14,635 bases of DNA. Origin: a virus. Its lineage: Duplodnaviria > Heunggongvirae > Uroviricota > Caudoviricetes. Shown here in pieces: positions 1 through 14,635 of this stretch. Where the stretch lies: the IMG/VR virus record IMGVR_UViG_2693429762_000010, positions 1 through 14,635 of that record; one strand, 5' to 3'. The number at the start of each line of letters is the position of its first letter. The stretch's first letter is position 1. A program made the position numbers and the translations under genes. Under the pieces are notes generated by a model, which was not told where the DNA came from, searched no databases, and saw only the letters and a program-made list of their open reading frames with translations.

Positions 1-171
1 TCAATAAATCCCATCATTGCGATCAACCTCATCCTTAACCATTGATGCGAGCAGTTCTTCCAGTTTCTGCGCTGATAGCTTTACCTGGTGATCTTCAGCA
101 TCTTCCCGGGCTATTGTGGTTCGCGCAGTGGCTGATTTTGCTGACATCACCACAGGGGGCAGACGGACCAT
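1..171 (-). CDS. hypothetical small protein (48-56 aa; ORF could extend to 282)
   Basis: Minus-strand ORF ending in TGA at 1-3 (window starts on its stop). In-frame ATGs at 145-147 and 169-171, the latter preceded by GGAGG about 10 nt upstream. No recognisable motif; product not recognised. Confidence 0.3.
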   Translation of the reverse strand: MVRLPPVVMSAKSATARTTIAREDAEDHQVKLSAQKLEELLASMVKDEVDRNDGIY

Positions 172-235
172 TGAACCATGGCCTCCGGAACAAATAAGGG
201 CAAAAATAACAACCACTATCGAAAGCTCACAAACT

Positions 236-475
236 AACCGCAGCACGTTCCTGCATACGACGTGTCTGCGGCATAATCCCAATGATTACTCCCTGACAGG
301 ATTTGCAGGCCACTCAATATCAGGTGCAGTTGATGTATCAACACGATTCAACAATACCCGATATTTATTCCATGCCTCCAGCAACGATCTTTCTTCCTCC
401 GTTGCGATTTCCAGATCTACAGCATCCTGCAGTGACGCAATATACTCACTGAATTCCTGGATGTAGAACTGTGTG
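236..475. repeat. direct repeat copy A (3' end of tfa plus downstream stem-loop)
   Basis: About 240 bp aligns by eye with 1284-1524 at roughly 85-90% identity, same orientation. Includes a degenerate copy of the GC-rich hairpin CCGCAGCACG...CGTG(T)CTGCGG. Confidence 0.7.
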
Positions 476-555
476 GTGACGGTCTTCCAGCCATTCGGCT
501 CCTGCTGTATCGAAGCATACCAGGCTATTTCAATATCGCTATGCTGCGGCAGCAT
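286..555 (-). pseudogene. tfa: tail fibre assembly protein C-terminal fragment (tfa', TfaX-like)
   Basis: 89-aa ORF whose last ~55 aa ([48 protein letters not shown]) nearly duplicate the C-terminus of the full Tfa at 1335-1919. The N-terminal ~35 aa are unrelated and the ORF is far shorter than the ~194-aa full protein. Confidence 0.6.
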
Positions 556-582
556 TTAACCCCTTGTAATTCATCGCCATAA

Positions 583-611
583 TTGATTTAATTCACAAAT
601 AAAACTATAAC
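583..611 (+). promoter_or_regulatory. putative sigma70 promoter for the methyltransferase gene
   Basis: TTGATT (583-588), 17-bp spacer, TATAAC (606-611) directly upstream of the ORF. Sequence match only. Confidence 0.3.
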
Positions 612-623
612 ATGGTGAAATCA

Positions 624-1280
624 ATGAAAAAAAACACAGATGATGGGGCTAAAATTTACACACCACTTACCCTAAAGCTTTATGACTGGTGGGTTTTGGG
701 AGTATCAAATCGGCTTGCATGGGGATGTCCTACAAAGGAACACCTTCTTCCACACTTTCTGGAACATGTAGGTAACAACCATCTGGATATTGGTGTTGGA
801 ACTGGGTTTTACCTTACTCACGTACCTGAGAGTAGTCTGATATCTTTAATGGATTTGAACGAAGCTAGCCTGAACGCGGCATCTACAAGGGCTGGGGAAT
901 CAAAAATTAAACATAAAATTAGCCATGATGTTTTTGAACCTTATCCCGCGGCGTTACATGGTCAATTTGATTCCATTTCCATGTTTTACCTTCTTCACTG
1001 CCTGCCTGGAAATATATCTACAAAAAGCTGTGTAATACGCAATGCGGCGCAGGCCTTAACTGACGATGGAACTCTATACGGAGCCACAATTCTTGGCGAT
1101 GGAGTTGTGCACAATAGCTTCGGTCAAAAACTGATGCGCATTTACAATCAGAAAGGCATCTTTTCAAACACAAAAGATTCCGAAGAAGGCTTAACACATA
1201 TACTCTCAGAGCATTTCGAGAATGTTAAAACCAAGGTTCAAGGTACTGTAGTAATGTTTTCCGCTTCAGGGAAAAAATAG
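624..1280 (+). CDS. class I SAM-dependent methyltransferase (YbcY-like by synteny)
   Basis: 218-222 aa ORF on the strand opposite the late genes. Glycine-rich motif I DIGVGTG plus hydrophobic YLLHCLPG block typical of Rossmann-fold SAM methyltransferases. GGTGA 5 nt upstream of the ATG at 624; an alternative ATG at 612 has no SD. Sits between tfa and tfa' as ybcY does in E. coli K-12 DLP12 (from memory). Confidence 0.75.
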   Translation: MKKNTDDGAKIYTPLTLKLYDWWVLGVSNRLAWGCPTKEHLLPHFLEHVGNNHLDIGVGTGFYLTHVPESSLISLMDLNEASLNAASTRAGESKIKHKISHDVFEPYPAALHGQFDSISMFYLLHCLPGNISTKSCVIRNAAQALTDDGTLYGATILGDGVVHNSFGQKLMRIYNQKGIFSNTKDSEEGLTHILSEHFENVKTKVQGTVVMFSASGKK

Positions 1281-1283
1281 CAT

Positions 1284-1524
1284 CCAACCGCAGCACGTTC
1301 TTGCTTAAGACGTGCTGCGGCATAATCCCAATGATTACTCCCTGACAGGGTTCGTAGGCCACTCAATATCAGGTGCAGTTGATGTATCAACACGGTTCAG
1401 CAACACCCGATACTTTTTCCAGGCTTCCAGCAATGAGGTTTCTTCCTCCGTTGCAATTTCCAGATCTGCAGCATCCTGAAGCGGCGCAATATGCTCACTG
1501 GCTACCTGCATCAGGTTGTTTTTT
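1284..1524. repeat. direct repeat copy B (3' end of tfa plus downstream stem-loop)
   Basis: Partner of 236-475; the two copies bracket the methyltransferase gene. Confidence 0.7.
1288..1320. terminator. GC-rich stem-loop between convergent methyltransferase and tfa genes
   Basis: CCGCAGCACGTTCTT / AAGACGTGCTGCGG forms a ~14-bp stem with one bulge and a 4-nt loop, 8 nt after the methyltransferase stop and 15 nt after the tfa stop. No immediately adjacent U-tract on either strand, so terminator function is uncertain. Confidence 0.4.
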
Positions 1525-1919
1525 GTTTCTTCCGCCTCCCGGATCCGGAACATTTTTTCTGCTTCCGTATCCTTCACCCAGGCTGTGCCGTTCCACTTCT
1601 GAAACTCCCCTTCCGGCGATAACCAGGTAACATTTTCCGGTAACGGACCGAGTTCAGAAATAAATAACTCGTCCCCTGACGCTACGTCATAAACCGTTTT
1701 ACCCCGATGGTCTTCAACGAGATGCCACGATGCCTCATCACTGTTGAAAACAGCCACAAAGCCAGCAGGAATATCTGGTGGTGCAATATCGGTACTGTTT
1801 GCTGGCAGACCTGTATGAGGCGGAATATATGCGTCACCTTCACCAATAAATTCATTAGTTCCGGCCAGCAGATTATAAATTTTTATGGTCCGTGCTTGTT
1901 CACTCATTCTGAATGCCAT
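1335..1919 (-). CDS. tfa: tail fibre assembly protein Tfa (lambda Tfa / TfaE / TfaQ family)
   Basis: 194-aa ORF starting [39 protein letters not shown] and ending [11 protein letters not shown], closely matching remembered E. coli prophage Tfa proteins. Its ATG overlaps the stop of the upstream tail-fibre ORF (TAATG). Confidence 0.92.
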
Positions 1920-2850
1920 TATGCAAGCCTCACAATATAGTTAAATGCGATGTTTTTGACGGTGTTTTCCGCGTTACCAGCAGCGTTAACGGTGATGGTG
2001 TGTCCATGTGAACCAATCGCAACGGAGTGCGTATGCGCACCAATACCTACAGTATGTGCATGTGCGCCAGAACTTGCTGCAGTACCAGACAGCGAGTGGG
2101 TATGAGCACCTGCTGACTGTGTCTGAATACGTTGATAATACGATCTACGGGAAGAAGTCCCCGGGCTTACTTGATACTGTGAATCCTGGACATAAGTGAA
2201 CCCACCGCCATCATAAAATGCTAACGCAGAACCGCCGCCTCCTGGCCAACGAATACCATTACCATGAGTATGATCACCGGCAGACCCCGTAGCAAGGTCA
2301 TAGGCTGCCTTTACCGACTTTGGCGTTGCCGCCAGCATTTCAGATGTGCTGTTGGTCGCGTTGCTAAGCTGAACTATCCCTTTCTGTGCTGTCGTTGCAT
2401 CCTGTGCGGTGTATTTCCCGTTAGCCAGCTCATACGCGGCCTTAACGGCTTTTGGCGTTGCCGCCAGTGACTCGGAAGTGCTGTTAGTCGCACTGCTGAG
2501 CTGAACTATCCCCTTTTTCGTCGTGCTCGCATCCTCAAGCGCCACGGCGGATGCAATATCCTCTGCCCGTTTTGCCGCTGTCTCAGCGCGCGTTGCCGCG
2601 GATTCCGCCGTACTTTTGCTCTGAGCTGCCGCCGTCGCACTGCCAGCTGCCTCTGTCGCCTTCGTGGATGCCGTCGTGGCGCTGCCCTTCGCTGCTGACG
2701 CCTGTCTGGTCGCCTCATCTTTTGAAGCAGACGCAGATGATGCCGATGACGCCGCCGAACTGGCGGACGATGCGGCAGCCGTTTTTGAGGATTCTGCGCT
2801 GGTTTCCGACGCTTTCGCGTTCGTCTCGGATGTCTTCGCTGCGGAATCCC
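1919..2850 (-). pseudogene. stf: side tail fibre (Stf) C-terminal remnant, 5' part deleted
   Basis: Frame ends ...[31 protein letters not shown] with the His-rich HTHS repeats and duplicated KGIVQLS(S/N)ATNSTSE motif of lambda Stf. Homology ([12 protein letters not shown]...) runs upstream in-frame to a stop at 2879-2881 with no credible start; the natural N-terminal ~2/3 is missing. Confidence 0.75.
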
Positions 2851-2859
2851 GCTGCTGCC

Positions 2860-2937
2860 TGTGGCGGTGTGAGCCGGATCATTACCGGCAAAAATATGTA
2901 CTTCCGCACGCTGTTCAGTGATGGTTTTCGTCACCAT
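2860..2937 (-). pseudogene. D: head decoration protein D N-terminal fragment (D'), fused out of frame to stf'
   Basis: ATG at 2935-2937 opens [26 protein letters not shown], matching the lambda gpD N-terminus (…GNSDPAHTAT…) from memory. Homology stops after ~26 codons and the stf frame takes over near 2850-2860. Confidence 0.5.
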
Positions 2938-2973
2938 ATTGTTAAAACCTCGTATTGATGTTCAGCACTGACT

Positions 2974-4425
2974 TCATGGCATGGCCATGAGCATTTTCAC
3001 GTCCGCATCACCGTCTTCTGACGCCTGTGACACGCCCCCCTGGACCGCAGCCGGTGAATGGTTCGCCATGAAATGTTCAAACAGGGCGGTTGTGGATGCA
3101 GAGACCGGTTCTGCCTTACCTGATCCCGCAGCCAGCACAGCCCGGGCGCTCTCCACGGTCATTCCCGGGCAGGCAGCCAGCTGTTCAGCCTGCGCCTCAG
3201 CCCCTTTTGCCTCATCCAGGGCCATGATCTGATCACGGAGTGATGGTCCGGCATTCGCCTGCGGTGAAGCAGCCAGGATCGGGCGGGCTTTTTCCACCGT
3301 CATCTCCGGCATCGCCGCCAGCGTTACTGCCAGTTGTTCACGACCGTTCGCTTCTTCACACGCCATAATGCGATCGGCTTCACTCTGCGCGGATGCCACC
3401 GGCTGCTGCGGTGCCGCCGCGGCCAGAATCGCCCGGGCCTGTTCAACGCTCATGCCCTGTTGCCCTGCCAGCATCGTGGCAAGCTGTTCACGTCCTTTCG
3501 CTTCCTGGCATGTCAGGATCCCCATCACTCGCTGGTTCTCCTGCACGGCGGCTTCCGTTGCAGTTAATTGCGGCATAGTGCCTCCTCTGACATTACTGTT
3601 CAGCGCCGTGGCCATCACACTGATGGCATCCGACGCATTGATTAATTCATCCGCCAGCCCGGCCTCAATGCCGGACTGACCTTCAAAAACGGCGGCCTCT
3701 GTTCCCGTGACCGCATCCACAGACAACCCGGTATACATCGCCACTTTTTCGGCAAACATCCGGTGCGCCGCATCAATCCGCTGCTGCATATCCTGGCGAA
3801 CCTCTGCCGGCAACGCTTCAAACTGATTGCCATCCACCTTGTGCGCCCCGGCATAAATCAGCGTGATATCCACACCGGCCTGCGCCAGATGACCGGCATA
3901 GCTGACATGGCTCATCATCACGCCAATGGAGCCGATACGGGATGTCTGGGTAACCAGCCGTCGGGAGCAGGCCGACGCCAGCAGCATGGCTGCAGAACAG
4001 GCCGTGTCATTGCACAGTGCCCAGACCGGCTTCTGCTGACGGAGGCGGTAAATCATGTCAGCGCAGTCAAACGCGCCGGCGGCCTGCCCGCCCGGACTGT
4101 CAATGTCCAGCAGTATGCCCCGCACCTGGCTATCTGCCATTGCCTGCTGAAGACAGGCGACAATGCCGTCATAGCCAGTCATTCCGGAAAATGGCCGCAT
4201 CCCCCCCAGCCGGTGCACCAGCGTGCCGCTCACCGGCAGTACCGCAATACCGTTCACCACCCGGTAAACACGGGCCGGTCGTTTACCTCCGGCCATGTAC
4301 TCGTCCGTTTCAGCCAGCATTCCGGGAGCATCAAGCTGTACCTGCTGTTGTGGTACCGAAAGACTTGCTGCCCCCATCTCGCGCCCGAGCGCGCAAAAGA
4401 AAACCCGCGCATAGCAGGGCCGCAT
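2974..4425 (-). CDS. C: lambda gpC-like head maturation protease/scaffold (S49 ClpP-like), natural N-terminus deleted
   Basis: YARVFFCAL…NGIAVLPVSGTL…GILLDIDSPGG…AFDCADMIYR…PVWALCNDTACSAAMLLASACSRRLVTQTSRIGSIGVMM aligns with remembered lambda gpC, with a repeated C-terminal EEA(K/N)GREQLA motif. Homology begins at YARVFF; the first in-frame ATG (4423-4425) lies in out-of-frame portal-derived sequence, so expression is doubtful. Confidence 0.7.
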   Translation of the reverse strand: MRPCYARVFFCALGREMGAASLSVPQQQVQLDAPGMLAETDEYMAGGKRPARVYRVVNGIAVLPVSGTLVHRLGGMRPFSGMTGYDGIVACLQQAMADSQVRGILLDIDSPGGQAAGAFDCADMIYRLRQQKPVWALCNDTACSAAMLLASACSRRLVTQTSRIGSIGVMMSHVSYAGHLAQAGVDITLIYAGAHKVDGNQFEALPAEVRQDMQQRIDAAHRMFAEKVAMYTGLSVDAVTGTEAAVFEGQSGIEAGLADELINASDAISVMATALNSNVRGGTMPQLTATEAAVQENQRVMGILTCQEAKGREQLATMLAGQQGMSVEQARAILAAAAPQQPVASAQSEADRIMACEEANGREQLAVTLAAMPEMTVEKARPILAASPQANAGPSLRDQIMALDEAKGAEAQAEQLAACPGMTVESARAVLAAGSGKAEPVSASTTALFEHFMANHSPAAVQGGVSQASEDGDADVKMLMAMP

Positions 4426-4552
4426 CGGCACTCTGCGCCGGTGGCAACCACTCCGCCATTTGCCCGCCAAATCCTGCGCCGCCCCCGTTGTAGCTGAGAC
4501 TCTCACGAAGCGGAACGCCGTTCACATCAATCAGGACAGGCGTTCGTTTCAT
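4406..4552 (-). pseudogene. B: portal protein B N-terminal fragment (B'), ~49 codons
   Basis: MKRTPVLIDVNGVPLRESLSYNGGGAGFGGQMAEWLPPAQSADAALL matches the lambda gpB N-terminus (…GGGSGFGGQLRSWNPPSESVDAALL…). Sequence then switches to gpC homology in another frame; start overlaps the W stop in the usual ATGA arrangement. Confidence 0.6.
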
Positions 4553-4755
4553 AACCTCACTCCCAGCGGACGACGGCGACGTCGGGTTGTCCCCAGTACC
4601 GACTCCGCATCATTGATCGCCCGGTTAAGCTCATCCAGAGAAGCCGCCGTATATTCAATTCTGCGACCATCTTTCTGGACAGACACCACCCGTTTACCGG
4701 TTAATAAATCAAGGCGCGCCTGACGCAGCGCCTGTAGTTCAGCGACTGTAACCAT
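4549..4755 (-). CDS. W: head-tail joining protein W
   Basis: 68-aa [42 protein letters not shown]… aligns along its length with lambda gpW (…[23 protein letters not shown]…). Confidence 0.85.
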   Translation of the reverse strand: MVTVAELQALRQARLDLLTGKRVVSVQKDGRRIEYTAASLDELNRAINDAESVLGTTRRRRRPLGVRL

Positions 4756-6379
4756 TCACTCCTCCGGACAGCTTCGCTGCCAGTTCTTTAAGGGTTGGCC
4801 GGGTCGTCTCTTCTTCCCGGGATTTTGCCAGTACAGCCAGATCAAGCTGCCAGCGTTGCACGGACACACGTAATGCCGCGTAGGCATACACCAGGCAGTC
4901 CAGCGCTTCGTTACGCCGCTTTTTGTTATCCCACAGCAGACGCATCTTTCCTTTTTCCCACTTCTCCACAAGCTCTTCCGCGACCAGTTGCTGCGCCTCT
5001 GTCTGCGAAAAAATCTCCGGATCATCAGGAAAACGGATGGCATACGACGTGGCTTCATCCGCAGACGTGGGATCGGCTTTCATACGGGCATAGAGAATTT
5101 CTTTTGCGGTGTCCGTCCCCACTTCACACAGATACACGCCCCGCTGATTGCGGGTTTTCGGCATGGTGATCACCGGCTTGCCATAGACAGATGCGCCTTT
5201 TACCGGCAGCACCCGGAAAACACCGTGTTTTTTTGACCTCTGATAGACAATTTCACCATCGATCCCCCCGGTGTCCCAGCAGACACGGGAAATGGTCATT
5301 TCGGTTCCGTCTGCATGGCAGTATTTTTTGTTGATCGCCGCATCCACACGTAACAGCGTCTCTTCCTCATCGGGACGGCCCATAATGATGATTTTATCCA
5401 CCAGAAAAGCTTCCTCTCCCGGTGCCCATCCCCAGACATACATCTCAAAACGGTTTCGCTGCGAGTCAATGCCCGCCGTCAGATAAACCACCCGGGCTGG
5501 CACCGCCGCCGTGTAATGCACGACCTTATCCATCAGTACCTGGTGATCGAGTTTTTCGCCCACGGCCTCTTCCCAGGTCTCGCCCAGCGTGGTGTTCACA
5601 AAGGTTTTCAGGCCGTTGGGATCTTTCAGTGCATCCAGCCAGTCATAGACTATCTGTACCCAGGTGGTGAACGGACTGTACGCCGTCCAGATATGGAACG
5701 TGATGGAGCGCGGCGGCGGAATTTCATTATCCGCGGCGCTGAAAAACGTCAGACCGTCACGGGTCCACATCCCCGTGTTTTCACAGATCCACCGCCCGTT
5801 GCTCTGGTCAAGCTCAGACTGATGGATCACGCAGCCATGATGTTCACAGAGGTAGAAAACGCTTTCGGGGCTGTCCTTCTCCCATTTAAGGCCAAAAGGC
5901 GTGGATTCATCGCCAAATTTCAGATACTGCTCCTCCCCACAGTGTGGGCAGGGCACATAAAAACGCATGAAATGCGCCGACTCGTTGGCCGCTTTTTCGA
6001 TCTGGCAGGTGCCTTTGATTTTAGGCGTCGAGCCGCGAATGGATTTGGGCCATACAGAGCCCTCAATACGTTTATCCCCAAGCAGGGTTGGCGAACCCTC
6101 TTTTTCGACATCCGGTTCGAACGAGGAAAGTTCGTCATAGCAGACCACGTCCACGGATTTTTCACGGTAGTTTTTAGCGGCAGCCCCGCCCAGGCACCAG
6201 AAGCCCACGCCCGATGAAAAACGTTTCAGCGTGAGGGTATTATCACGATGTTTACGCCCAAACCACGGTGCAAGATCGAGTAAAACCGGCACATCCCTGA
6301 TCGTGGGTTCCACATGAGATTTCATAAAATCTTCAGCAGCAGAACCCCTGACTCTGCCAGGCGGTGATGGTCCTGACAT
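4739..6379 (-). CDS. A: terminase large subunit gpA homolog lacking the N-terminal ~90 residues (Nu1'-'A deletion fusion; probably non-functional)
   Basis: [17 protein letters not shown]…[18 protein letters not shown]…[16 protein letters not shown]…[10 protein letters not shown]…[12 protein letters not shown] closely matches lambda gpA from about residue 95 onward. The N-terminal region, including the Walker A segment remembered near residue 80, is absent. In-frame ATGs at 6379 and 6325. Confidence 0.85.
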
Positions 6380-6422
6380 CAACGCCAAAAATATCGGCCA
6401 GTTTTTTCTTATTGACGTTCAT
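6333..6422 (-). pseudogene. nu1: terminase small subunit Nu1 remnant (first ~26 codons only)
   Basis: ATG at 6420-6422 opens [26 protein letters not shown] (lambda Nu1: MEVNKKQLADIFGASIRTIQNWQEQG…), then runs into a stop after 3 more codons where gpA-homologous sequence begins. Confidence 0.6.
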
Positions 6423-6559
6423 ACACTCCCCCGGGAACCAGAAAGGATCTGAAAATGGCGTTTTCTAACAAAAACAGCCTTTGTCAGATCCTTTTATATT
6501 TTTAAAATTCTATTGATAATCAATCAGTTAAAAAGAAGAAGAACGGATCTGATTTTTCC

Positions 6560-6620
6560 CTAAAAATTTTCATAAATAGCGAAAACCCGCGAGGTCGCCG
6601 CCCCGTAACCGGTCGGATCG
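6560..6620 (-). other. cos site (cosN cohesive-end sequence with flanking cosQ/cosB regions)
   Basis: Minus strand reads GGGGCGGCGACCTCGCGGGTTTTCGCTATTTATGAAAATTTT, matching the lambda left end. The 12-nt cohesive-end sequence GGGCGGCGACCT lies at 6592-6603, about 170 bp upstream of the Nu1' start. Confidence 0.8.
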
Positions 6621-6639
6621 CCGGAAAGGACCCACGAAA

Positions 6640-6654
6640 TGATAATGATTATCA
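6640..6654. promoter_or_regulatory. perfect 7-1-7 inverted repeat TGATAATgATTATCA (Fur-box-like)
   Basis: Matches the TGATAATnATTATCA half-site model of the Fur box; about 37 bp from cosN and 155 bp upstream of the RHH-like ORF. Could be a coincidental AT-rich palindrome. Confidence 0.3.
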
Positions 6655-6809
6655 TCTATATAAGGTTTATCACAACATGTGTGTACGCCATCAAACCACG
6701 AGAAATAATCAATTATGACGCAGGTATCGTATTAATTGATCTGCGTCAAATTAACGTAAAAGCAACTTCAGATAATACAAATCAGCAACACTGAATATGG
6801 GGAAACATT

Positions 6810-6995
6810 ATGTCATCAAAGAACAGAACCCGCAGAACAACAACCCGCAACATCCGATTTCCAAACCAGATGATTGAACAAATTAACATCGCTCTTGATC
6901 TGAAAGGTTCAGGAAACTTTTCAGCGTGGGTTATTGAAGCCTGCAGAAGAAGGCTGTCAACAGAGAGTTCGGGTATGAATTACATAATTAAGTAA
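6810..6995 (+). CDS. small predicted ribbon-helix-helix DNA-binding protein
   Basis: 61-aa ORF with GGGGAA upstream. Pattern RNIRFPNQMIEQINIALDLKGSGNFSAWVIEACRRRL fits the beta-strand/helix/turn/helix layout of Arc/MetJ/CopG proteins. Equivalent small ORF remembered at the lambda right end. Confidence 0.55.
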   Translation: MSSKNRTRRTTTRNIRFPNQMIEQINIALDLKGSGNFSAWVIEACRRRLSTESSGMNYIIK

Positions 6996-7127
6996 CATGG
7001 TGTTCACAGAACACGCAGTTACCGGACACATCAGTTTTCCATTCGCTCCCCGGCAGTACAGGCTTCCCCTCTGACGGGATAGCCTGAAAAAATAACACAG
7101 AAAATTATTTGTTATAATTAATATAAC

Positions 7128-7268
7128 TTACTCAAAAAAAAGCGACGAGAAAATCAGCATCAACGAACAATAAGCGCCAATACGTGATAACAAATGGCAG
7201 CCATATTTATCTGCAGTATAAGCAATGGACAGGATAACCACACCAGAAACCGTCAGCATAAAATCCAT
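7128..7268 (-). CDS. hypothetical small hydrophobic protein (46 aa)
   Basis: ORF below the track's size cut-off found by manual translation: MDFMLTVSGVVILSIAYTADKYGCHLLSRIGAYCSLMLIFSSLFFE, with GGGGAAG 6 nt upstream. One or two predicted TM segments. Could be chance. Confidence 0.3.
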   Translation of the reverse strand: MDFMLTVSGVVILSIAYTADKYGCHLLSRIGAYCSLMLIFSSLFFE

Positions 7269-7618
7269 TTGAACTTCCCCGGACAAAATCGACTCATCTA
7301 AAGATTTACAGCTCTTTTTATTATCAATATGTTAAAAGTAAAATAAACAGATGTTCAATAACACGAATACAAAAACGTGCTGAAATTCAATGAATCCATT
7401 TCTGTGTCATCAATTAATAGTGATAAACATCCGGCTTCTTCCACCATCGCACCGGACAGGCGACTATGAGGGGACAACGCCGCGCTCCGTTAACGCGGTA
7501 AACCCCGGTGTGTATCGTTTTTGATTATCCCCGCACACTCGCGCAGAGGAGTCTCCCTGTCGGGCTGCGGTCTCTGTTAATGAGGGAATACAGCGACGAT
7601 ACGGCGCATCAACAAAAC

Positions 7619-8077
7619 TTATTTCAGGCACTGAGTGCGGATATAGTCCTGTGCCCCTTCCAGTTGCTTGTGCATCGTCATCAGCCGCTCTCTGAGGGTG
7701 AAATAATCCCGTGTAACGGTGTCTGCCAGTTGGGGGCCGGTTGCATTATCCACGCCGGAGGTGGTGGGGGCTTCACGCACGGAGCCTGGACAGGTGGCGT
7801 TGATCCGCAGGCGCTTACGACCAGCGGCAACATCAGCGCGCAGAGTTTCATTTTCAGCTCTCGCATCGGATAATTCCCTCGAGTATTTTGCATCGAGCGC
7901 AGCAACATCGCGCTGGCGCACCTGCATATCAGTAATGGTTGCGTTCGCCAGCTTCAGTTCACTGGCTTTGTTATCGCGCTGCGCTTTGTAGGTAATCGCG
8001 TTATCACGGTAATGGTCTGTTGCCATCCACAGCGCACCACAGGCCACCAGCAGAATAACGATAAACGCGGAAAGCAT
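7619..8077 (-). CDS. Rz: i-spanin Rz
   Basis: N-terminal TM segment [17 protein letters not shown] followed by [45 protein letters not shown]…, aligning with lambda Rz. ATG at 8075-8077; an in-frame GTG at 8092 is an alternative start. Confidence 0.85.
7681..7866 (-). CDS. Rz1: o-spanin Rz1 lipoprotein embedded in the +1 frame of Rz
   Basis: [61 protein letters not shown] has lipobox VVSAC with Cys at position 20 and the proline-rich core, as in lambda Rz1. Confidence 0.8.
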
Positions 8078-8088
8078 TCGGTTTATGT

Positions 8089-8220
8089 TCACCCCAGCAA
8101 CCCCGACGAAGACAACATCATCCAGGCCATGGAAAGAAAAAGAGCAACCAGCATTAGTGAAAATGAAATGCCGACAATTACACAGAGGATCTTCGCCAGC
8201 GTTATGAGTTTGTCTGACAT
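8089..8220 (-). CDS. hypothetical small membrane protein (43 aa)
   Basis: [43 protein letters not shown], single predicted TM helix. Strong SD GGGAGGA 7 nt upstream; stop abuts the Rz start region. Confidence 0.4.
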
Positions 8221-8234
8221 GCTTAATCCTCCCT

Positions 8235-8417
8235 TCACGATTTCAACGCAATGACCAGTTTTGCCAGCCCATACAGCATCGGGGACACAGCAACACCGAC
8301 CGCCACCCACTTAATGGCAAAAGCCAGTGCTCTGCTGATGTCATCAGTTACAGGCGCTTTCAGTTCAAGGCCATTTTTCATAGTCAACCTCAACAGAATT
8401 CGTTTATACTTCGCCAT
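8235..8417 (-). CDS. hypothetical small membrane protein (60 aa; alternative start at 8381 gives 48 aa)
   Basis: [60 protein letters not shown]: charged N-terminus, C-terminal TM segment. AGGGAGA immediately upstream of the ATG at 8417. Confidence 0.4.
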
Positions 8418-8450
8418 GTTCTCCCTTGCCTTACTCAAGGTCAGAAACAC

Positions 8451-8483
8451 AAAACCCCGCTTGGTGCCAACAAACGGGGTTTT
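8451..8483. terminator. candidate bidirectional intrinsic terminator between endolysin and downstream small ORFs
   Basis: AAAACCCCG…CGGGGTTTT inverted repeat with a ~15-nt loop, flanked by T-runs on both strands (TTTTACTTTT on plus, TTTTGTGTTT on minus). Only a 5-bp GC core, so weak. Confidence 0.3.
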
Positions 8484-8573
8484 TACTTTTATTCACTTAC
8501 GTTTCGCCAGTTCGCAGGATTTCGTGTTATCCGCCCGCGTGGCCATACCTTATTTTTCAGCAAAATATTCTGC

Positions 8574-9107
8574 TTATCTGTCGATTCCCCAGCACGCCAG
8601 CGCGCTCTCCTGGTCACGACGGGATACCTGACCATAACAGTTATTTGAGCGGATACGGCAGTCTCTGCCACCGTCCTTAATCCACCAGCGAATCGCCTCA
8701 CACGCTCCCCTGCGGTCACCAGCATTCAGCCGCTTATAAAACGTCGACGGGAAACACTTACCGGGGCCAATGTTATAGGGACAGAATGACGCTATACCCG
8801 CTTTCTGTGGTTCGGTCAGTGGAACTTTAATATTGCGCTCCACCCATGCCAGCGCCTTATCCCGTTCAATGGCATTAACCTGGTCGCATTTTTCCTTCGA
8901 CAGTTTCATGCCCGGAATAACAGGTTTACCATCCACCATTGTGGCACCGCGGCAGATGGTCCAGATACCCGCACCATCACGGTATGCCGTTGTGTGGTTA
9001 CCTTCTTTTTCATCCAGAAACTGGTCGAGAATATCAGGCGCAGGCGCACCGATGGCAATCAACGCCAGAACGGCAGCCGACAGGCCATATTTGATTTTGG
9101 TGTTCAT
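8574..9107 (-). CDS. R: SAR endolysin (GH24 lysozyme R, phage 21 / 933W type)
   Basis: 177 aa. N-terminal Ala/Gly-rich signal-anchor-release segment LSAAVLALIAIGAPAP followed by DEKEGNHTTAYRDGAGIWTICRG carrying the E…D…T triad arrangement of T4-lysozyme-like enzymes. Confidence 0.9.
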   Translation of the reverse strand: MNTKIKYGLSAAVLALIAIGAPAPDILDQFLDEKEGNHTTAYRDGAGIWTICRGATMVDGKPVIPGMKLSKEKCDQVNAIERDKALAWVERNIKVPLTEPQKAGIASFCPYNIGPGKCFPSTFYKRLNAGDRRGACEAIRWWIKDGGRDCRIRSNNCYGQVSRRDQESALACWGIDR

Positions 9108-9163
9108 GGATATTTATCAGGATTTATCGGTTCCGAATCCCTGGATATGTTAAATCTTCAGCC

Positions 9164-9190
9164 CGCCAGCGGTAGGACACTGGCGTTTTT
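9164..9190 (+). terminator. small hairpin plus T5 tract upstream of the 104-aa plus-strand ORF
   Basis: CGCCAG-(10 nt)-CTGGCG followed by TTTTT on the plus strand. Modest 6-bp stem. Confidence 0.25.
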
Positions 9191-9235
9191 CCTGATGGCT
9201 GAAATATATCTGACAATTTCAGTAGAGGATTAACC

Positions 9236-9550
9236 ATGCATAACGATCAACATAATTATGATTTATGCCTGCAAGCCATAAATGAGCGGGTAAAATCAGA
9301 GTGCCTCTTACTCCTCCCACAAGAACACGATGCAGTAAAATCCATTCAGGCTGAGCCGTATGGACATCTCACACCTGTGACTCTCGGCATTATCGCCAGA
9401 GCATTAACACAGCCCATGCTTATGCGTATTAAGACCAATATAAATAACTGGTTGAATGAAGAATTAAGCTACCTTGATTGTGAGTGGGACAATCATTACG
9501 CAAAAACACAAAAAGAACGCATCTTCAGTCGATTATCCAGCAACAGATAA
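9236..9550 (+). CDS. hypothetical protein (104 aa), opposite strand to the lysis genes
   Basis: ORF MHNDQHNYDLCLQAINERVKSECLLLLPQEHDAVKSIQAEPYGH… with good SD GAGGA 7 nt upstream. No motif recognised. Its stop lies 9 bp from the stop of the convergent 268-aa gene. Confidence 0.55.
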   Translation: MHNDQHNYDLCLQAINERVKSECLLLLPQEHDAVKSIQAEPYGHLTPVTLGIIARALTQPMLMRIKTNINNWLNEELSYLDCEWDNHYAKTQKERIFSRLSSNR

Positions 9551-9559
9551 CGAGCCACC

Positions 9560-10366
9560 TTATATACGCCCTTTCAGATAAGTCATCCCCGGCTGCATCC
9601 AGTCAACAGGTGCTTTCTTAAAGGGCGTATTATCAAAATCACGCAGAAGAGCCTCCAGCACAACTGCATCATTGTCAGCACCACTGGCCATCATTTCAAT
9701 CTCAGCTGCTACCTGCAGATATCCCATGCAACGACCAATGCGCTTCATCAGCCCCTGCTTTTTATTGTTCTTCAGGTAATCAATGGCAAATTCAATGAGC
9801 GCCTCACTATGCTGGTGCGATGGCGGTGTTAATTTCCCATTTTCTGAGATGGTTATTTTCCCGCCATCTCCGTATACAACAAAGGATGGCCGGTTACACT
9901 CCCATTCCTGATCTTTATCAGGTGCAGACGCAATAAAATAACGTTTATTTCCTTCCTCTCCGGCACTTTTAACCGTAATGGAGTACTCAGACTGCAGACA
10001 AGACGCCTCTTTTTCTGACCGCAGTGTTGACGGCGGCATCTTCAGAGAACCAGTAATTCTTCCCGGTAGCTTTCCTTTGTAGGTTATCAACACATCCTGC
10101 GCCTCTAAAATTATGGGGCGCTTTTCCGGCAACGGTTCGTTCCCTTCACATAACCCGGCAGCAACATCCATGAAAAACTGCTTCGCCTGCTTTTTCGCCT
10201 CAGCTTCGTAAAACTCCAGCGTGGCACCTTCAGTACGGTCAAGACTAATCGCCACATTTGGCAACAACAGTGACGGATACCCACCAATTTCCAGTACCAC
10301 AGTAACAGTAATCTTATCCGGGTAATTATTTATCCCTTTAACAACCAGTTCGTATTTTTTCTTCAT
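9560..10366 (-). CDS. hypothetical protein (268 aa) inserted between holin and endolysin
   Basis: Long ORF starting 4 nt after the holin stop, with GGGGAGAG SD inside the holin 3' end (translational coupling). Soluble, Lys/Glu-rich, no TM segments, no Walker or other catalytic motif recognised. Confidence 0.7.
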   Translation of the reverse strand: MKKKYELVVKGINNYPDKITVTVVLEIGGYPSLLLPNVAISLDRTEGATLEFYEAEAKKQAKQFFMDVAAGLCEGNEPLPEKRPIILEAQDVLITYKGKLPGRITGSLKMPPSTLRSEKEASCLQSEYSITVKSAGEEGNKRYFIASAPDKDQEWECNRPSFVVYGDGGKITISENGKLTPPSHQHSEALIEFAIDYLKNNKKQGLMKRIGRCMGYLQVAAEIEMMASGADNDAVVLEALLRDFDNTPFKKAPVDWMQPGMTYLKGRI

Positions 10367-10370
10367 CGCT

Positions 10371-10586
10371 TTACTCTCCCCGCGCCGCCTTACGCCGGTC
10401 CTCTCTGATTTTGAAATACAGGTTAGTCAGATATGTCAGCAGCCCAAACAGCAGACTCCCCAGCACGCCTATTGCCGCCCACTGAGACGGGGAAACCCTG
10501 TCCAGCAACTGCAGGAACCAGTAGCCCGTTCCCACCGCTGACGTGGTGTATGACACACCTGTTGTGATTTTTTCCATCTGGTACAT
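10371..10586 (-). CDS. S: pinholin S (S21 / 933W S family), dual-start
   Basis: 71 aa: [71 protein letters not shown], two TM segments and a charged C-terminus. Met1 and Met4 give the usual antiholin/holin dual start. The ORF-track N-terminal extension to 10691 is not part of the protein. Confidence 0.9.
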
Positions 10587-10621
10587 ACCCCGTCTCCCGT
10601 TATCCGGAAGCTGACAACAAT

Positions 10622-10650
10622 AAAAAAGCCACCAGTTAAGTACTGATGGC
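10622..10650 (-). terminator. rho-independent terminator downstream of nanS-p
   Basis: On the minus strand GCCATCAG-(7-nt loop)-CTGGTGGC (8-bp stem with one G.U pair) followed directly by TTTTTTATT. Lies between the nanS-p stop (10736) and the holin start (10586). Confidence 0.5.
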
Positions 10651-10735
10651 TCTGATAACTCATGCAGGCATCTCAGACGACCCACTGACACTACCGGTGA
10701 GTTTAACGATACCTTCCATTTGACTGGCTCACTTT

Positions 10736-12589
10736 TTATGATGATGCTGGTGCATTTATCTCCAGCACCAGACTTTCTATCTCAACGCCATACGCTGCAT
10801 TTTTGGTAATATCCGTCAGCGTCAGCGCATTCAGCCCCAGTGTCAGACTGTCTTTTATGACCTGGAATGCCGGGCCAGCCACTCCATTCAGTTTCGGAGT
10901 AACCGTGGCACTGCCGGCGGTGAACACCAGCTCCAGCGTCTGCCAGTCGTTACTGTAATTCCCGAACTCGCCCAACTTTGTGTTTCCTGCTTTCCTGTGA
11001 TGCATCAGATTCAGTTTGCCGTCTGTGGTCTGGGTGAAGAACGACATCAGGAACGGGTTACCAGTCCCGGTCATCGCCACGACGTCAGGTAACGCTACAT
11101 CGGTATACAGATAAATTCCCAGACCGAACTGGTTGTTGGTCAGTGCGCCTGACAGTCGAAACTTACAGCTCAGTCTGCCACCCCGTGTCAGCAGGGAGAC
11201 TGCGTCATCCACCGGGCGCGTCAGGGACCAGGCTTTATTGCTCTGCTTGGCGATCTTAAATACACCACCCGACAACTGAATTCCGCCGTCCTTAATGGTC
11301 CAGCCCTGCGCAGCAGCCTCTCCGGCTGTCGGCAGCAGGGAGATTGTGCGAACGGACGTATCTGCAGACGGACCCGATGGCGTGTCGCCGCCGGGCGAGG
11401 GTTTGATTTCCGGTGCCTTACCACTGATGAAGGCTGAGGTGCGCCCGGCTACGTTCAGAATAGCAGTTGCCATACGATCGGGAATAATGCCACGACGCGC
11501 CCATGAGCTGAAATGCGTCGGGCGATTTGATGATACCCAGTTTTTGTTCGTTCGGGATGCCGAACCGTAATAACCAGACCCGGCAATATCAGGATCTTCT
11601 GACGGGTTGTTTGTCGGTGTATTAACTCCGCTACCATCGGTCATAAAGGGAACAAAATAAATCTGCTGGGATTCTTTACCTTTATATGCACCATATACCA
11701 CTTCATATTGCGTACCGTGTTCTTGTTTCCACGCGTATGTCGTGTCGCCACAAATCCAGGGGACTGATGCCGGACTTCCACCGTGACACTGCGCTGCCAG
11801 CCCGGCAAGGTCAGCACGGAACTGCTGTACCATTGCAAGAAATGCTGCTGGCTGCTGGGCGTAACTGGCATTCGTCATATCGAATTCCCCCTGCATCCAG
11901 CATATCGCCAGCAAAACGTTTTTCGGGTTTTTCTGCAATGCTGCCTTCGTGCGGAAAAGCAGATCCTGATATAACGGCTTACCCACTCCCCAGCGAGCCG
12001 AATCCTGACTGGCCCCCGTGGACTCGCTGAATGTCCCCTCCGTGCCCTGGGTGAATGCCGAACCACCACGACAGCATGGTACCAGCAGGATCCCCGCATT
12101 ATTAGGGATATACGGAAGCAGTTTTTTGGCAATATGTAAGCCCTGGCCGACACAGCCGTACTGCCCTTTGCTCAGGTCAGCCCGGGGATGGTTAATCGTA
12201 CTCATATCCTGAACATCATGCAGACAATGGTCAGCAGGAATGATGTCGTTAAATACGCATACTTCACCACCGGGAGTCACTGTGTTACGACGGGCCAGTT
12301 GCTTAATGCGCGGATGGGGCGCATCGTATGAATCCGGAAGCGGAAGCCCTTCACCGTAAGCCATGGCATTGGACTGCCCGGCCAGTACGATGACGTAGTA
12401 CCACTCCGGCTCAGTTGCACCACTGACGACCACATCACCTTCTGCTGCAATCGCCTGCATCAGGGTATAAGGGGTTATGGCCACCGGACTACCAAACGGC
12501 TGCCAGCCCTCTTTCAGTTTATGTGTCAGCTTTTCCGCAAGATCTGACGGCGACGCCGCCCTGACAACATCATAGTGTTTAAATGCCAT
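10736..12589 (-). CDS. nanS: prophage sialate O-acetylesterase NanS-p (DUF1737 N-terminal domain plus SGNH/SASA esterase)
   Basis: 617-622 aa. Starts [22 protein letters not shown]…; esterase block [13 protein letters not shown] (GQSN nucleophile motif). Matches remembered NanS-p proteins found between stx/tRNAs and the lysis genes in EHEC prophages. Start placed at the second ATG (GGAAAG SD); the first ATG at 12604 lacks an SD. Confidence 0.88.
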
Positions 12590-12849
12590 GGTTCTTTCCA
12601 CCATCTGAAAAATGATTCTTTAAAATACCTGACATGTAATACAGAAAAAACACAAAACCATACCTTAATTAAAAACCTCATCATCAAGCAGATATGCATG
12701 GATAAACTACAAGACGAGATATAAACCACCCTGCATTTAAATAAACAATAAACAACATCAGAAAAATAATTCTGCTCTATGGTTTACAATCAAAAATATC
12801 ATTTATACTTTTCAGAACATCACCAGCAAGGCATAAACAAGGAAACTAA

Positions 12850-13185
12850 ATGAAGTGGATTGTGATTGATACAGTTATCCAGCCATCATGCGGAATATCT
12901 TTTTCAGTCATATGGAGTAAAATAAAATTAATAATCTGGTATCAATCGGATGCTTTCTTACCTCCTGAAAGTATATTTACACTGACTCACACAGGCATCA
13001 TGCTCAATAACAAAGTGCTGCCTGTAACCATTTACAACGTAGTACCATTCAATAAAACATTCTGGAATTTAATCAAAAACAGCCAGGAATGCCCTACAAA
13101 TACAGATAACGTATTGAATGAATGCTTTAATAACCGTTGCACTCTGCAAATATGTCCTTATGGGCTAAAACAACAAAGTCCATAA
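12850..13185 (+). CDS. hypothetical protein (111 aa), AT-rich cargo gene
   Basis: Uninterrupted ORF in AT-rich DNA with strong SD AAGGAAA 7 nt upstream. Hydrophobic N-terminus and a C-terminal four-Cys cluster (C-x9-C-x4-C-x4-C). 6 of 13 Ile codons are ATA. No family recognised. Confidence 0.55.
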
Positions 13186-13220
13186 GGAGTTTACTCACAT
13201 CTGACAAAATCAATATAAAC

Positions 13221-13240
13221 AGCCCCTCCGGAGAGGGGCT
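13221..13240. terminator. perfect 8-bp GC-rich stem-loop (AGCCCCTC-CGGA-GAGGGGCT)
   Basis: 35 nt after the 111-aa ORF stop. A U-rich tract follows on the minus strand only (GTTTATATTGATTTTG), so it is more plausibly a minus-strand terminator or an RNA-stabilising hairpin. Confidence 0.3.
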
Positions 13241-13632
13241 GGAGAGTGGCGCTATGTGCCATTGCATGGTGCCGGGTGCCTCCCGGTGAATTCAGTACCA
13301 GCACCTGAATCCGCGATTATCCCATATACCTACTCGCTGATTGCCCCTCCGCACAGGGGGATTCACCATGCCAGTTTCTTTTAACAAACTCCCCGCAAAC
13401 CAGACAACAGTCAACCGCCTGAATTGTGAAGTATTTAAAAATTTCTCCCGCTAACTGATACCCGGCTAACAGTCTGGCGTTTTCTTTTTCAGCAACGGGA
13501 AAGCAGCAACCACCACACCCGCCACCAGCACACCGTCAGCCAGCACTGACATTATCCGGCTGCTGCAATGCCATTCACAAAAACAGTAAGCAATCACTTT
13601 TTACCGTAACCGGTGATAATCCAGATATGTAT

Positions 13633-13989
13633 CTACCCCAGATGAGTAATCCGAAGTTCATCCATACCACAGGTCCTGGCTATTCTGTTGTACTCCTGAA
13701 CAAGAGCAAATAATTCTGAATTAGCCACCATGAACTCATCGCAAACCCTCTGTATAGCATCACTATTCAGAATAATAACGTCTCTTCCCGAAAGACGATC
13801 AGGAGTACAGAACAAAACTGTCAAACGGCTGAAGGCCTTTGCTCGTTCTGCATTGACTATATCAATACGCTGCCTAAGGATGAAACACCCCGACGCCTCA
13901 TCAATATTCACTCTACCCACACCATATGAATGATAAATATTTAATGCTGAAAAAACCATTAGACCGTATAACAAACACTCAATCAACAC
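13633..13989 (-). CDS. hypothetical protein (118 aa), AT-rich cargo gene
   Basis: Stop-free 357-nt frame in AT-rich DNA. GTG start without a clear SD; alternative in-frame ATG at codon 11. Rich in AGA/AGG/ATA codons. No family recognised. Confidence 0.4.
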   Translation of the reverse strand: MLIECLLYGLMVFSALNIYHSYGVGRVNIDEASGCFILRQRIDIVNAERAKAFSRLTVLFCTPDRLSGRDVIILNSDAIQRVCDEFMVANSELFALVQEYNRIARTCGMDELRITHLG

Positions 13990-14096
13990 TTAACAGAACT
14001 TTTATTTTTGACAAACATATAATATTTTCAACAATATCCTGAGCCAGGTATATTTCAGTATAAGGCTCTGCCGAAAGGAATCTGGAAGAATGAATA

Positions 14097-14173
14097 TGGC
14101 GCGCTGTACTGGATTCGAACCAGTGACCGATTGCTTAGAAGGCAATTGCTCTGTCCGGCTGAGCTAACAACGC
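14097..14173 (-). tRNA. tRNA-Arg (anticodon UCU)
   Basis: Minus strand GCGTTGTTAGCTCAGCCGGACAGAGCAATTGCCTTCTAAGCAATCGGTCACTGGTTCGAATCCAGTACAGCGCGCCA: 7-bp acceptor stem, D-arm, anticodon loop CUUCUAA, T-loop GGTTCGAATCC, encoded CCA. Resembles argU-type and Stx-phage arg tRNAs. Confidence 0.9.
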
Positions 14174-14273
14174 TGAATACCGATAATGGACCGCCATCGG
14201 GGACCCGCCCCCGCACCAACAACCCTGTTATCGTGTCGTCTGCTCTTCCTGATAAGCTAATGGCGGTTTGTGA

Positions 14274-14349
14274 TGGTGGCCCTTGCTGGATTTGAACCAG
14301 CGACCTGGCGATTATGAGTCGCTCGCTCTCACCACTGAGCTAAAGGGCC
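14274..14349 (-). tRNA. tRNA-Ile2 (anticodon CAU, ileX/ileZ-like, reads AUA after lysidine modification)
   Basis: Minus strand GGCCCTTTAGCTCAGTGGTGAGAGCGAGCGACTCATAATCGCCAGGTCGCTGGTTCAAATCCAGCAAGGGCCACCA: full cloverleaf, anticodon CAU. Much closer to remembered E. coli ileX than to elongator tRNA-Met. Confidence 0.88.
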
Positions 14350-14398
14350 GGAAGCAGAATAATAATGGTGCGTAATTAATTCTGCAATCTCATCCGTT

Positions 14399-14635
14399 TC
14401 AAACGATTAAATCCTGAACTTCCCTGACTGTCTGCTCAAAACGTCCGGTCTCCAGTTCAACGCCAATCGCACGACGCCCGAGCGCCAGTGCAGCTTTTAC
14501 CGTTGAACCTGAGCCCATAAAAAAATCTGCAACCAGGTCATCATCTGCATAGTACGTCAGCGCCGGCCACTGGTTCAGGGCGTATGCGAACGCTTTCGCC
14601 AGTTCTGAGTGTCGCGACAGGGTTTTCATCTTTTC
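14399..14635 (-). CDS. DNA methyltransferase (N6-adenine/N4-cytosine, beta-class), C-terminal part; gene runs off the window end
   Basis: C-terminal 76+ aa with FxGxG SAM-binding motif (DFFMGSGST) placed near the C-terminus as in beta-class DNA MTases. Frame stays open to the window edge. Position upstream of the tRNAs matches remembered Stx-phage layout. Confidence 0.75.
   Translation of the reverse strand, partial: EKMKTLSRHSELAKAFAYALNQWPALTYYADDDLVADFFMGSGSTVKAALALGRRAIGVELETGRFEQTVREVQDLIV

Follow-up and report, generated by a model that had tools for sequence, protein, structure and literature searches.

Two conserved genes for tiny membrane proteins and a terminator-like hairpin between the endolysin and Rz genes of a lambdoid Escherichia coli prophage

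Introduction

The textbook lambdoid lysis cassette consists of four genes, S, R, Rz and Rz1, and the timing of lysis sets phage burst size and, in Shiga toxin (Stx) phages, also the release of toxin. Here we describe a 14,635-nucleotide (nt) stretch of DNA from a virus of the Caudoviricetes (IMG/VR record IMGVR_UViG_2693429762_000010, positions 1 to 14,635; hereafter the window), in which two small open reading frames (ORFs) of 60 and 43 amino acids (aa), designated ORF60 and ORF43, and a terminator-like hairpin lie between the endolysin gene R and the spanin gene Rz of a lambdoid E. coli prophage.

Several described systems resemble this arrangement in part. In phage P2, lysA lies between the endolysin gene K and the spanin genes lysB and lysC and affects lysis timing, and the holin genes of lambda (S107/S105) and phage 21 (S71/S68) each give two products from nearby starts that differ in N-terminal positive charge. 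Lambda bor, which lies next to Rz, and HK97 gp15 are lambdoid morons, elements that Juhala and colleagues are said to have defined in 2000 by their own promoter and a downstream terminator. The releasin gp25 of phage Mu is a membrane-tethered, mostly cytoplasmic protein that maps no more than five genes downstream of the endolysin, is found alongside several classes of endolysin and plays an accessory part in the membrane step of lysis; it has 99 aa, belongs to DUF2730 and consists of an N-terminal transmembrane (TM) domain (N-out, C-in) and an acidic cytoplasmic domain of 73 aa (PMC9239132). Lcc6 of the Shewanella prophage LambdaSo, a lambdoid prophage with a pinholin and an endolysin of the signal-anchor-release (SAR) type, is a 65-aa single-TM protein that is required at the holin step and harmless alone (bioRxiv 10.1101/2024.01.23.576932).

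ORF60 shares with Mu gp25 its small size, its membrane character and its position near endolysins of several classes, but it differs in having only 60 aa, a basic N-terminus, a C-terminal membrane helix and no match to DUF2730 or any other Pfam family, and ORF43 is almost without a soluble part. Lcc6, compared by description only, differs in that its TM segment is N-terminal and its gene lies near int and xis, far from the lysis genes. The two conserved candidate starts of ORF60, of which the longer form would be the more basic, recall the dual-start holins; however, these starts lie 12 codons apart instead of two to three, the protein lacks a charged C-terminal tail, and LysA, with several TM domains, is built differently. 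No sequence similarity was found between ORF60 and either P2 LysA or the dual-start holins. As with morons and with the antirepressor (Ant) module of Stx phages, ORF60 and ORF43 are extra genes that stand between genes adjacent in relatives and assort independently, yet, unlike a classical moron, ORF60 has its terminator-like hairpin upstream and no sense promoter was found for it. Type I toxin-antitoxin systems such as hok/sok and symE/symR offer a further parallel, with hydrophobic peptides of up to about 60 aa, one helix in each ORF, and a candidate cis-antisense RNA over the start region of ORF60; in contrast to these systems, ORF60 has no detected toxin promoter and is embedded in a phage late operon.

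Results

ORF60 and ORF43 are conserved genes for small membrane proteins

ORF60 and ORF43 are genuine, conserved genes that encode tiny membrane proteins, predicted to be single-pass. Both were already in databases as hypothetical proteins and as PHROGs of unknown function, and they are likewise annotated as hypothetical proteins in a RefSeq genome that carries an identical copy. We found neither gene named in a curated family, in a defence model or in the literature, which was searched with RefSeq accessions, a Sakai locus tag, peptide strings and descriptive phrases. The first-pass annotation of the window, made from the sequence alone, had described two small membrane-protein ORFs and a hairpin in a gap of about 480 bp between R and Rz, and its coordinates proved exact, with both ORFs on the minus strand and a gap of 481–496 nt (Table 1). 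It had also credited each ORF with a good Shine-Dalgarno sequence (SD) and one predicted TM helix, and both elements could be located. The ATG of ORF60 at 8417 is preceded at a distance of 3 nt by AAGGGAG (8421–8427), and the ATG of ORF43 at 8220 lies 7 nt downstream of GGGAGG (8228–8233), which overlaps the stop codon of ORF60; the best 19-residue Kyte-Doolittle windows score 1.88 for ORF60 (residues 38–56) and 2.89 for ORF43 (residues 11–29).

Frames of 43 to 60 codons alone are within chance for a single sequence, and the first-pass annotation had allowed that both might be chance ORFs. Comparison of about 160 related loci from IMG/VR removed this doubt. ORF60 was intact in 147 of 147 loci (41 distinct DNA sequences) and ORF43 in 132 of 132 (33 distinct DNA sequences), and the ratio of nonsynonymous to synonymous substitutions (dN/dS, pooled Nei-Gojobori) was 0.23 for ORF60, the lowest of the six frames, and 0.30 for ORF43, compared with 0.42 for the neighbouring Rz and 0.09 for R. 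Chance is excluded because the sequences are conserved, the frames stay intact and both are under purifying selection. Of 5426 complete E. coli genomes, 990 (about 18%) carry the 571-bp region over at least 80% of its length; homologues of both ORFs occur across E. coli, and those of ORF60 also in E. marmotae and Salmonella.

On the plus strand, two shadow ORFs at 8012–8254 (80 aa) and 8251–8631 (126 aa) run antisense to ORF43 and ORF60, respectively, and their length follows from the antisense frame that shares wobble positions with the genes staying open. Such frames are open in most homologues and gave dN/dS values of 0.45 opposite ORF60 and 0.32 opposite ORF43. The strand of ORF43 was therefore assigned from its SD, ATG, hydrophobicity and synteny; in every junction variant the gene keeps its ATG, its stop codon and an SD-like run of G residues 6–8 nt before the ATG.

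In the AlphaFold2 model of ORF60 (mean pLDDT 75), a helix at residues 3–14 is followed by a loop and a long C-terminal helix at residues 22–59, of which residues 37–58 form the hydrophobic core. The N-terminus is basic (K3, K5, R6, R10 and K14) and is predicted by the positive-inside rule to be cytoplasmic, which would make ORF60 a tail-anchored protein. Closer relatives share an invariant set of residues in the membrane helix, F33 A34 I35 K36 W37, S45 P46 and L48 Y49 G50 (FAIKW...SP.LYG.AKL), and this conservation appears to exceed what a plain anchor would need. Across 1.8 billion representative proteins, a scan showed that distant members keep the YKRIL(L/M) start of the motif and MYG(I/V)AKL, and a profile search delineated a narrow family of 16 representatives, all of them small proteins, none of which connected ORF60 to a known family. 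A scan of genome contigs yielded nothing confirmed.

Apart from a short N-terminal part, ORF43 consists almost wholly of one long hydrophobic helix, and this helix of 25–30 residues is kept over 58–100% identity. A natural read-through fusion of ORF60 and ORF43 was modelled as two long helices. Neither ORF had a significant match in Pfam, NCBIfam or PADLOC, ORF43 giving only a sub-threshold match to DUF3930, and the PADLOC defence models returned no matches for the ORFs at E ≤ 1. A spanin combines a TM domain with a domain that spans the periplasm; ORF43 has about 7–10 residues beyond its helix and ORF60 ends two residues after its own. An origin of ORF43 as a duplicated Rz TM domain was considered and rejected, the similarity being not significant against shuffled sequences (best z 2.7, nine comparisons).

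The contents of the R–Rz slot vary among prophages

The gap was dissected by a blastn comparison with the Sakai prophage Sp9, in which homology to the window extends from R to 8488, breaks off and resumes exactly at the ATG of ORF43 (8220), from where it continues through Rz. By this alignment, the gap comprises three pieces, namely the trailer of R, a cassette of hairpin and ORF60, and ORF43 joined to Rz, and the latter two are independently assorting units. The first-pass annotation had taken hairpin and ORFs together as a single unit, a view with which the Sp9 breakpoints are at odds.

In Stx-type prophages, an Ant module replaces the hairpin and ORF60 and stands alongside an ORF43 homologue. 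By tblastn, ORF43 was found in 276 phage records, mostly of Stx-converting phages and often without an annotated feature, and ORF60 was found in only 14 records of isolated phages. Salmonella prophages carry ORF60 directly before Rz and have no ORF43, and some E. coli phages have the gap filled with as many as four small TM ORFs (among them a 31-aa ORF, ORF43, a truncated ORF60 and a 28-aa mini ORF60 helix). Distances to the next gene are 5–14 nt, and ORF43 lies 5–11 nt before, or overlaps, Rz or a lipoprotein gene. The gap between R and Rz is a variable cargo slot. The earlier statement that R is followed directly by Rz in lambda and phage 21 holds for the K-12 prophages DLP12 and Qin, in which R overlaps Rz with nothing between them, but not for the Stx phages, in which Ant and the ORF43 homologue occupy the same position.

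One locus (L004, 2403–2967; L numbers are our handles for individual loci) also has a 28-aa ORF, MSAELIRAMAFAIRIVAIAVLVWAIRWW, whose likeness to the ORF60 family is confined to the membrane helix and whose stop codon overlaps the start of Rz.

ORF60 homologues adjoin unrelated endolysins

In five contexts, ORF60 immediately follows an endolysin gene; these endolysins represent three unrelated folds, and the genes that come after ORF60 encode either of two spanin families or lipoproteins. The window represents the first context, with an R21-type lysozyme, ORF60, (ORF43) and Rz. In the second, Phage_holin_8, a holin with three TM segments and a GH108/PG_binding_3 endolysin are followed by ORF60 and ORF43 and by a phrog_7528 lipoprotein (L120, L169–171). 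The third, from Salmonella, has an HP1-type holin and lysozyme, ORF60 and Rz (L172, L181, L184), and the fourth a GH19-like endolysin with PG_binding_1, ORF60, two lipoproteins and a tail sheath gene (L176–178). In the fifth, ORF60 stands between an R21-type lysozyme and a DUF2514 spanin, a family unrelated to DUF2730 (L182/183). The P2-like phage L088, in which the cassette is not next to an endolysin, carries it about 0.9 kb downstream of its spanins. The unit of hairpin and ORF60 is therefore mobile, and enriched beside endolysins without being restricted to them.

Two observations concern the immediate neighbours of the ORFs in these contexts. In the GH108 and GH19 contexts, genes for small lipoproteins of the outer-membrane type come directly after ORF43 or ORF60 (L120, 3340–3519; L176, 5303–5646; L177, 5156–5335), with lipoboxes such as LVGC, LTGC and IAAC; one of them is phrog_7528, of unknown function, and the others match nothing. 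In Salmonella prophages, the 3' end of the endolysin gene is overlapped, just upstream of ORF60, by a further hydrophobic ORF of 34–38 aa that matches phrog_14810 weakly (L181, 4708–4812; L184, 4730–4846).

A hairpin accompanies ORF60 in every context

The hairpin upstream of ORF60 has a predicted energy of −22.1 kcal/mol (z = −3.0), and two of 200 shuffled sequences folded as well. It folds equally well on the plus strand and has usable T-runs in both directions, a shape that would allow two-way termination. One terminator-like site was found in 2 kb where 2.0 were expected from shuffled sequences, so there is no excess of such sites. A DNA-motif scan found 162 ORF60 homologues, and each has a hairpin with an A-run, a GC-rich stem and a T-run 30–71 nt upstream of it. 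The outer stem of the hairpin (AAAACCCCG/CGGGGTTTT) is conserved, and the inner stem varies with compensatory changes, for example GTTTG...CAAGC versus GGCTG...CAGTCC.

A consensus scan of seven divergent contexts found no sigma-70-like sense promoter between the hairpin and the ATG of ORF60, although weak non-consensus promoters could escape such a scan. A sense promoter built on the invariant TATAAA was examined separately and discarded, no homologue having a −35 element. We infer that ORF60 and the genes that follow it would be transcribed by read-through only, which in lambdoid phages would mean by Q-modified polymerase.

ORF60 contains a candidate internal start and an antisense promoter-like site

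Codons 4–14 of ORF60 contain several synonymous sites that are invariant or almost so (TAT AAA NNA ... AGG TTG ACN ATG AAA) among 33 distinct sequences, while neighbouring codons vary freely. Part of this pattern coincides with a candidate second start. The rare codon AGG is kept in 32 of the 33 sequences, and TTG and ATG in all 33; AGG in its TTG context supplies a GAGG 6 nt before Met13, which many gene callers choose as the start. This internal SD and Met13 suggest that ORF60 may have two isoforms of 60 and 48 aa, of which the longer would add four basic residues. A stem able to mask the internal SD is weak (8 bp, −3.9 kcal/mol) and shows no covariation.

The same codons hold a promoter-like site on the opposite strand that faces the hairpin. 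Its geometry is kept in seven of seven divergent homologues, with a −10 of TATACT or TATAAT and a −35 that matches at 4–5 of 6 positions (consensus −35 T(A/G/T)GTCA, −10 TATA(C/A)T). The −10 positions fall on the invariant synonymous sites, the tyrosine codon being TAT in 33 of 33 sequences, and the middle A of the preceding codon is kept even though its residue varies among K, N and Q. A transcript from this site would be a predicted RNA of about 70–75 nt, complementary to the SD and leader of ORF60 and ending at the hairpin.

Hfq-bound RNAs elsewhere in Sakai prophages were noted in passing. The abundant RNA EcOnc12, described by Tree and colleagues in 2014, maps just downstream of Rz/Rz1 in Sp9, on the strand opposite the late genes (L186, about 7023–7070; old coordinates 1779522–1779569), and both EcOnc12 and EcOnc33 map elsewhere than the hairpin studied here. 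The peaks of EcOnc10 and EcOnc11 show almost equal signal, suggestive of a repeated sequence.

Layout of the lysis region

All lysis genes in the window lie on the minus strand (Table 1). An identical copy of the endolysin is annotated as 'lysozyme' by the NCBI Prokaryotic Genome Annotation Pipeline (PGAP). The start of Rz is ambiguous, since residues 'NR', conserved in homologues, lie upstream of the PGAP ATG (8077) and the ancestral ATG is ATA here; a candidate GTG at 8092 overlaps the stop codon of ORF43 (GTGA) and, if used, would couple the translation of Rz to that of ORF43. The start of Rz1 was picked on the assumption that it corresponds to that of lambda Rz1.

Table 1. Positions of the lysis genes and of the elements in and around the R–Rz gap of the window
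Feature	Position	Strand	Family, accession or remark
Phage-21-type class II holin	10371–10691	−	PF04971
DUF1327/YdfR-like gene, 268 aa	9560–10366	−
104-aa ORF	9236–9550	opposite to lysis genes	phrog_1853
Endolysin R, phage-21-type lysozyme with N-terminal SAR-like hydrophobic segment	8574–9107	−	PF00959 (2.8e-25); phrog_7 endolysin
R–Rz gap	8078/8093–8573		481–496 nt depending on Rz start
Endolysin 3' trailer	8488–8573	−	part of the R segment, not of the inserted cassette; blastn homology with Sakai Sp9
Exchangeable cassette (hairpin, leader, ORF60, SD of ORF43), 267 bp	8221–8487	−	replaced in Sakai Sp9
Terminator-like hairpin, 13-bp stem, 7-nt loop	8451–8483	folds on both	A-run 5', T-run 3'
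ORF60, 60 aa	8235–8417	−	phrog_1115/phrog_4493; PGAP WP_001151823.1
Antisense promoter-like site (−35 TAGTCA, 18-nt spacer, −10 TATACT)	8381–8410	+	faces hairpin
Candidate second start of ORF60 (internal SD GAGG 8388–8391, Met13 ATG 8379–8381)	8379–8391	−
ORF43, 43 aa, one strongly hydrophobic helix	8089–8220	−	phrog_4906; PGAP WP_001280932.1
Rz (i-spanin)	7619–8077 (PGAP ATG) or to 8092 (GTG)	−	PF03245 (6e-47)
Rz1 (o-spanin lipoprotein), within Rz in another frame	7681–7866	−	lipobox LVVSAC, proline-rich mature part

The junction of holin and endolysin, which the first-pass annotation had passed over, also holds extra genes, the DUF1327/YdfR-like gene and the opposite-strand 104-aa ORF (9236–10366); the cassette is thus interrupted at both junctions. 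Downstream of Rz, a further small hydrophobic ORF (7128–7286, minus strand) corresponds to a 46-aa hypothetical protein in RefSeq (WP_000347013.1) and had no family match in PADLOC or NCBIfam. In phage PhiR5_2 (L001, 2570–2977), the Rz coding sequence is annotated from an internal Met and so without its TM N-terminus, probably a start-codon or annotation problem like that in the window. Elsewhere in the window, Rfam returned an STnc100 small RNA (sRNA) match (132 bits; 13211–13400, minus strand) and two copies of IS009 RNA (329–532 and 1378–1576, both minus strand), one of them just below the gathering score, and ARAGORN placed tRNA-Arg(tct) and tRNA-Met(cat) upstream of the late region (14097–14349, minus strand).

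Discussion

We tentatively favour, with somewhat less than even confidence, the reading that ORF60 and ORF43 are late-expressed accessory inner-membrane proteins that modulate lysis. The two genes form accessory cargo of the late (lysis) operon in a lambdoid E. coli prophage. According to this model, Q-antiterminated late transcription would read through the hairpin downstream of the endolysin gene, so that both proteins would be made only then, an expectation based on the lack of a detected promoter of their own. ORF43, packed against Rz, may be translationally coupled to it. Both proteins would act in the inner membrane during the lytic cycle and may tune holin triggering, endolysin release or spanin action through helix-helix contacts, as in known accessory lysis proteins, and ORF60 may come in its 60-aa and 48-aa forms in the manner of dual-start holin/antiholin genes. 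A late, lysis-linked role is favoured because the genes adjoin unrelated endolysins and spanins, ORF60 following the endolysin in five contexts, and because of the absence of a detected sense promoter, the tight packing with Rz, the possible dual start and the precedents of the Mu releasin and LambdaSo Lcc6. A small protein with at least one TM domain beside an endolysin, as ORF60 is in those five contexts, is also what is looked for in a holin or antiholin.

Several observations weigh against a role in lysis. Searches of Pfam, PADLOC and NCBIfam found no homology to any characterised lysis protein, and neither C-terminal end (...LVIALKS in ORF60, ...SSSGLLG in ORF43) is a hydrophilic, charged tail of the holin type, a point that counts in particular for ORF60. 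The cassette type manages without the two ORFs in DLP12 and Qin, and presumably in lambda and phage 21 as well. Some more distant ORF60 homologues stand away from lysis genes; they separate baseplate gene V from W in L179 and the major tail gene from the tail chaperone in L180, and follow tail-fibre assembly genes in L175 and L185. These positions are slots of the moron type. The arrangement in which a lipoprotein gene follows is a pattern seen for exclusion genes. The dN/dS values alone (0.32 antisense versus 0.30) do not assign ORF43 to a strand.

The strongest competing reading is a moron that serves in exclusion or helps the lysogen in another way, and the ORF60 homologues at tail and baseplate junctions keep it alive. 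Under it, the lysogen would gain from ORF60 and ORF43 as small envelope proteins, the most plausible gain being superinfection exclusion through a block of DNA entry or of a receptor pathway, sometimes together with an outer-membrane lipoprotein, and the R–Rz junction would simply be tolerant of insertions. We consider this somewhat unlikely. In its favour, the slot is variable and also receives Ant and other small TM ORFs, and the hairpin and ORF60 behave as an exchangeable cassette that is inserted (boundaries 8487/8221) between genes which abut in DLP12 and Qin. In phages of other types, homologues occupy tail, baseplate and tail-fibre operon junctions, lipoproteins follow in L120 and L176–178, and ORF60 is common in prophages and rare in isolated phages. 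However, no sense promoter of its own was found in any context, the hairpin lies upstream and not downstream, the PADLOC defence models gave no match, and the tight packing with Rz suggests co-expression with the late genes.

A second alternative, which we regard as unlikely, is an antisense-gated toxic peptide akin to a type I toxin-antitoxin system, in which a constitutive RNA of about 70–75 nt, running from ORF60 codons 3–13 to the hairpin, would pair with the SD and leader of ORF60 and silence leaky synthesis of a membrane-damaging peptide until late transcription overwhelms the RNA. The promoter-like site that would drive this RNA keeps its position and quality in the seven divergent homologues, even where leaders have diverged, and its key −10 positions lie at invariant synonymous sites; yet its nucleotides also encode a conserved peptide, so that constraint on the protein is a confounder, and promoter-like matches in the scan are at chance level (2 found, 2.3 expected). 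The hairpin, which accompanies ORF60 in every context and has a good T-run on the plus strand, would complete a predicted RNA made of a 5' stem-loop and a terminator, and short antisense sRNAs are established in the late regions of lambdoid prophages (PMC4104026); against this, Rfam has no match in 8000–8700 and no promoter for the toxin was found. A published table for Sakai from Hfq cross-linking and analysis of cDNA (CRAC) shows no peak at the R-proximal hairpin, but this is no real test, since the Sakai prophages checked carry the Ant version without ORF60.

For ORF43, it is also conceivable that the gene is chiefly a translated leader that recouples Rz to upstream ribosomes after insertions had parted Rz from R, the peptide itself being of little function. 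ORF43 has a strong SD, always lies 5–11 nt upstream of, or overlaps, Rz or the lipoprotein gene, and stays with Rz when the upstream cargo changes, and R overlaps Rz directly in DLP12 and Qin. We nevertheless hold this to be quite improbable, because the peptide is under purifying selection and its hydrophobic helix of 25–30 residues is preserved over the full range of identity, which a mere leader does not need. Finally, that one or both ORFs are not genes, being chance frames or shadows of a true feature on the plus strand, is highly improbable even though the wobble-sharing plus-strand frames are mostly open with lowish dN/dS, since such mimicry of a coding signal is expected of wobble-aligned antisense frames, the plus-strand ORFs extend through the hairpin into R and Rz, lack an SD and are not hydrophobic (Kyte-Doolittle 0.94 versus 2.89 for ORF43), and the sense ORFs retain ATG, SD and stop in every variant.

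A bolder synthesis, which we regard as unlikely, would join several of these elements. The hairpin and ORF60 would form a self-contained, 267-bp mobile cassette of a new kind, encoding a dual-isoform membrane peptide, either holin/antiholin-like or toxic. A two-way terminator upstream and a cis-antisense sRNA, which starts within the first codons of the gene and ends at the same terminator, would keep its expression locked, and the cassette would move from one late operon to another in temperate phages, among them lambdoid and P2-like ones. Rz would have in ORF43 a separate, small and widely missed membrane partner, present in most Stx phage records.

The Mu releasin and LambdaSo Lcc6 demonstrate that small membrane proteins outside the set of S, R, Rz and Rz1 can be essential, and ORF60 and ORF43, which are common yet often unannotated, occupy just the position in which one would look for an accessory lysis factor. 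Should they change the timing of lysis or the function of the spanins, another component would have to be added to models of prophage induction and Stx release; should they be exclusion factors or an antisense-gated toxin, the list of small proteins that hosts receive as prophage cargo would grow.

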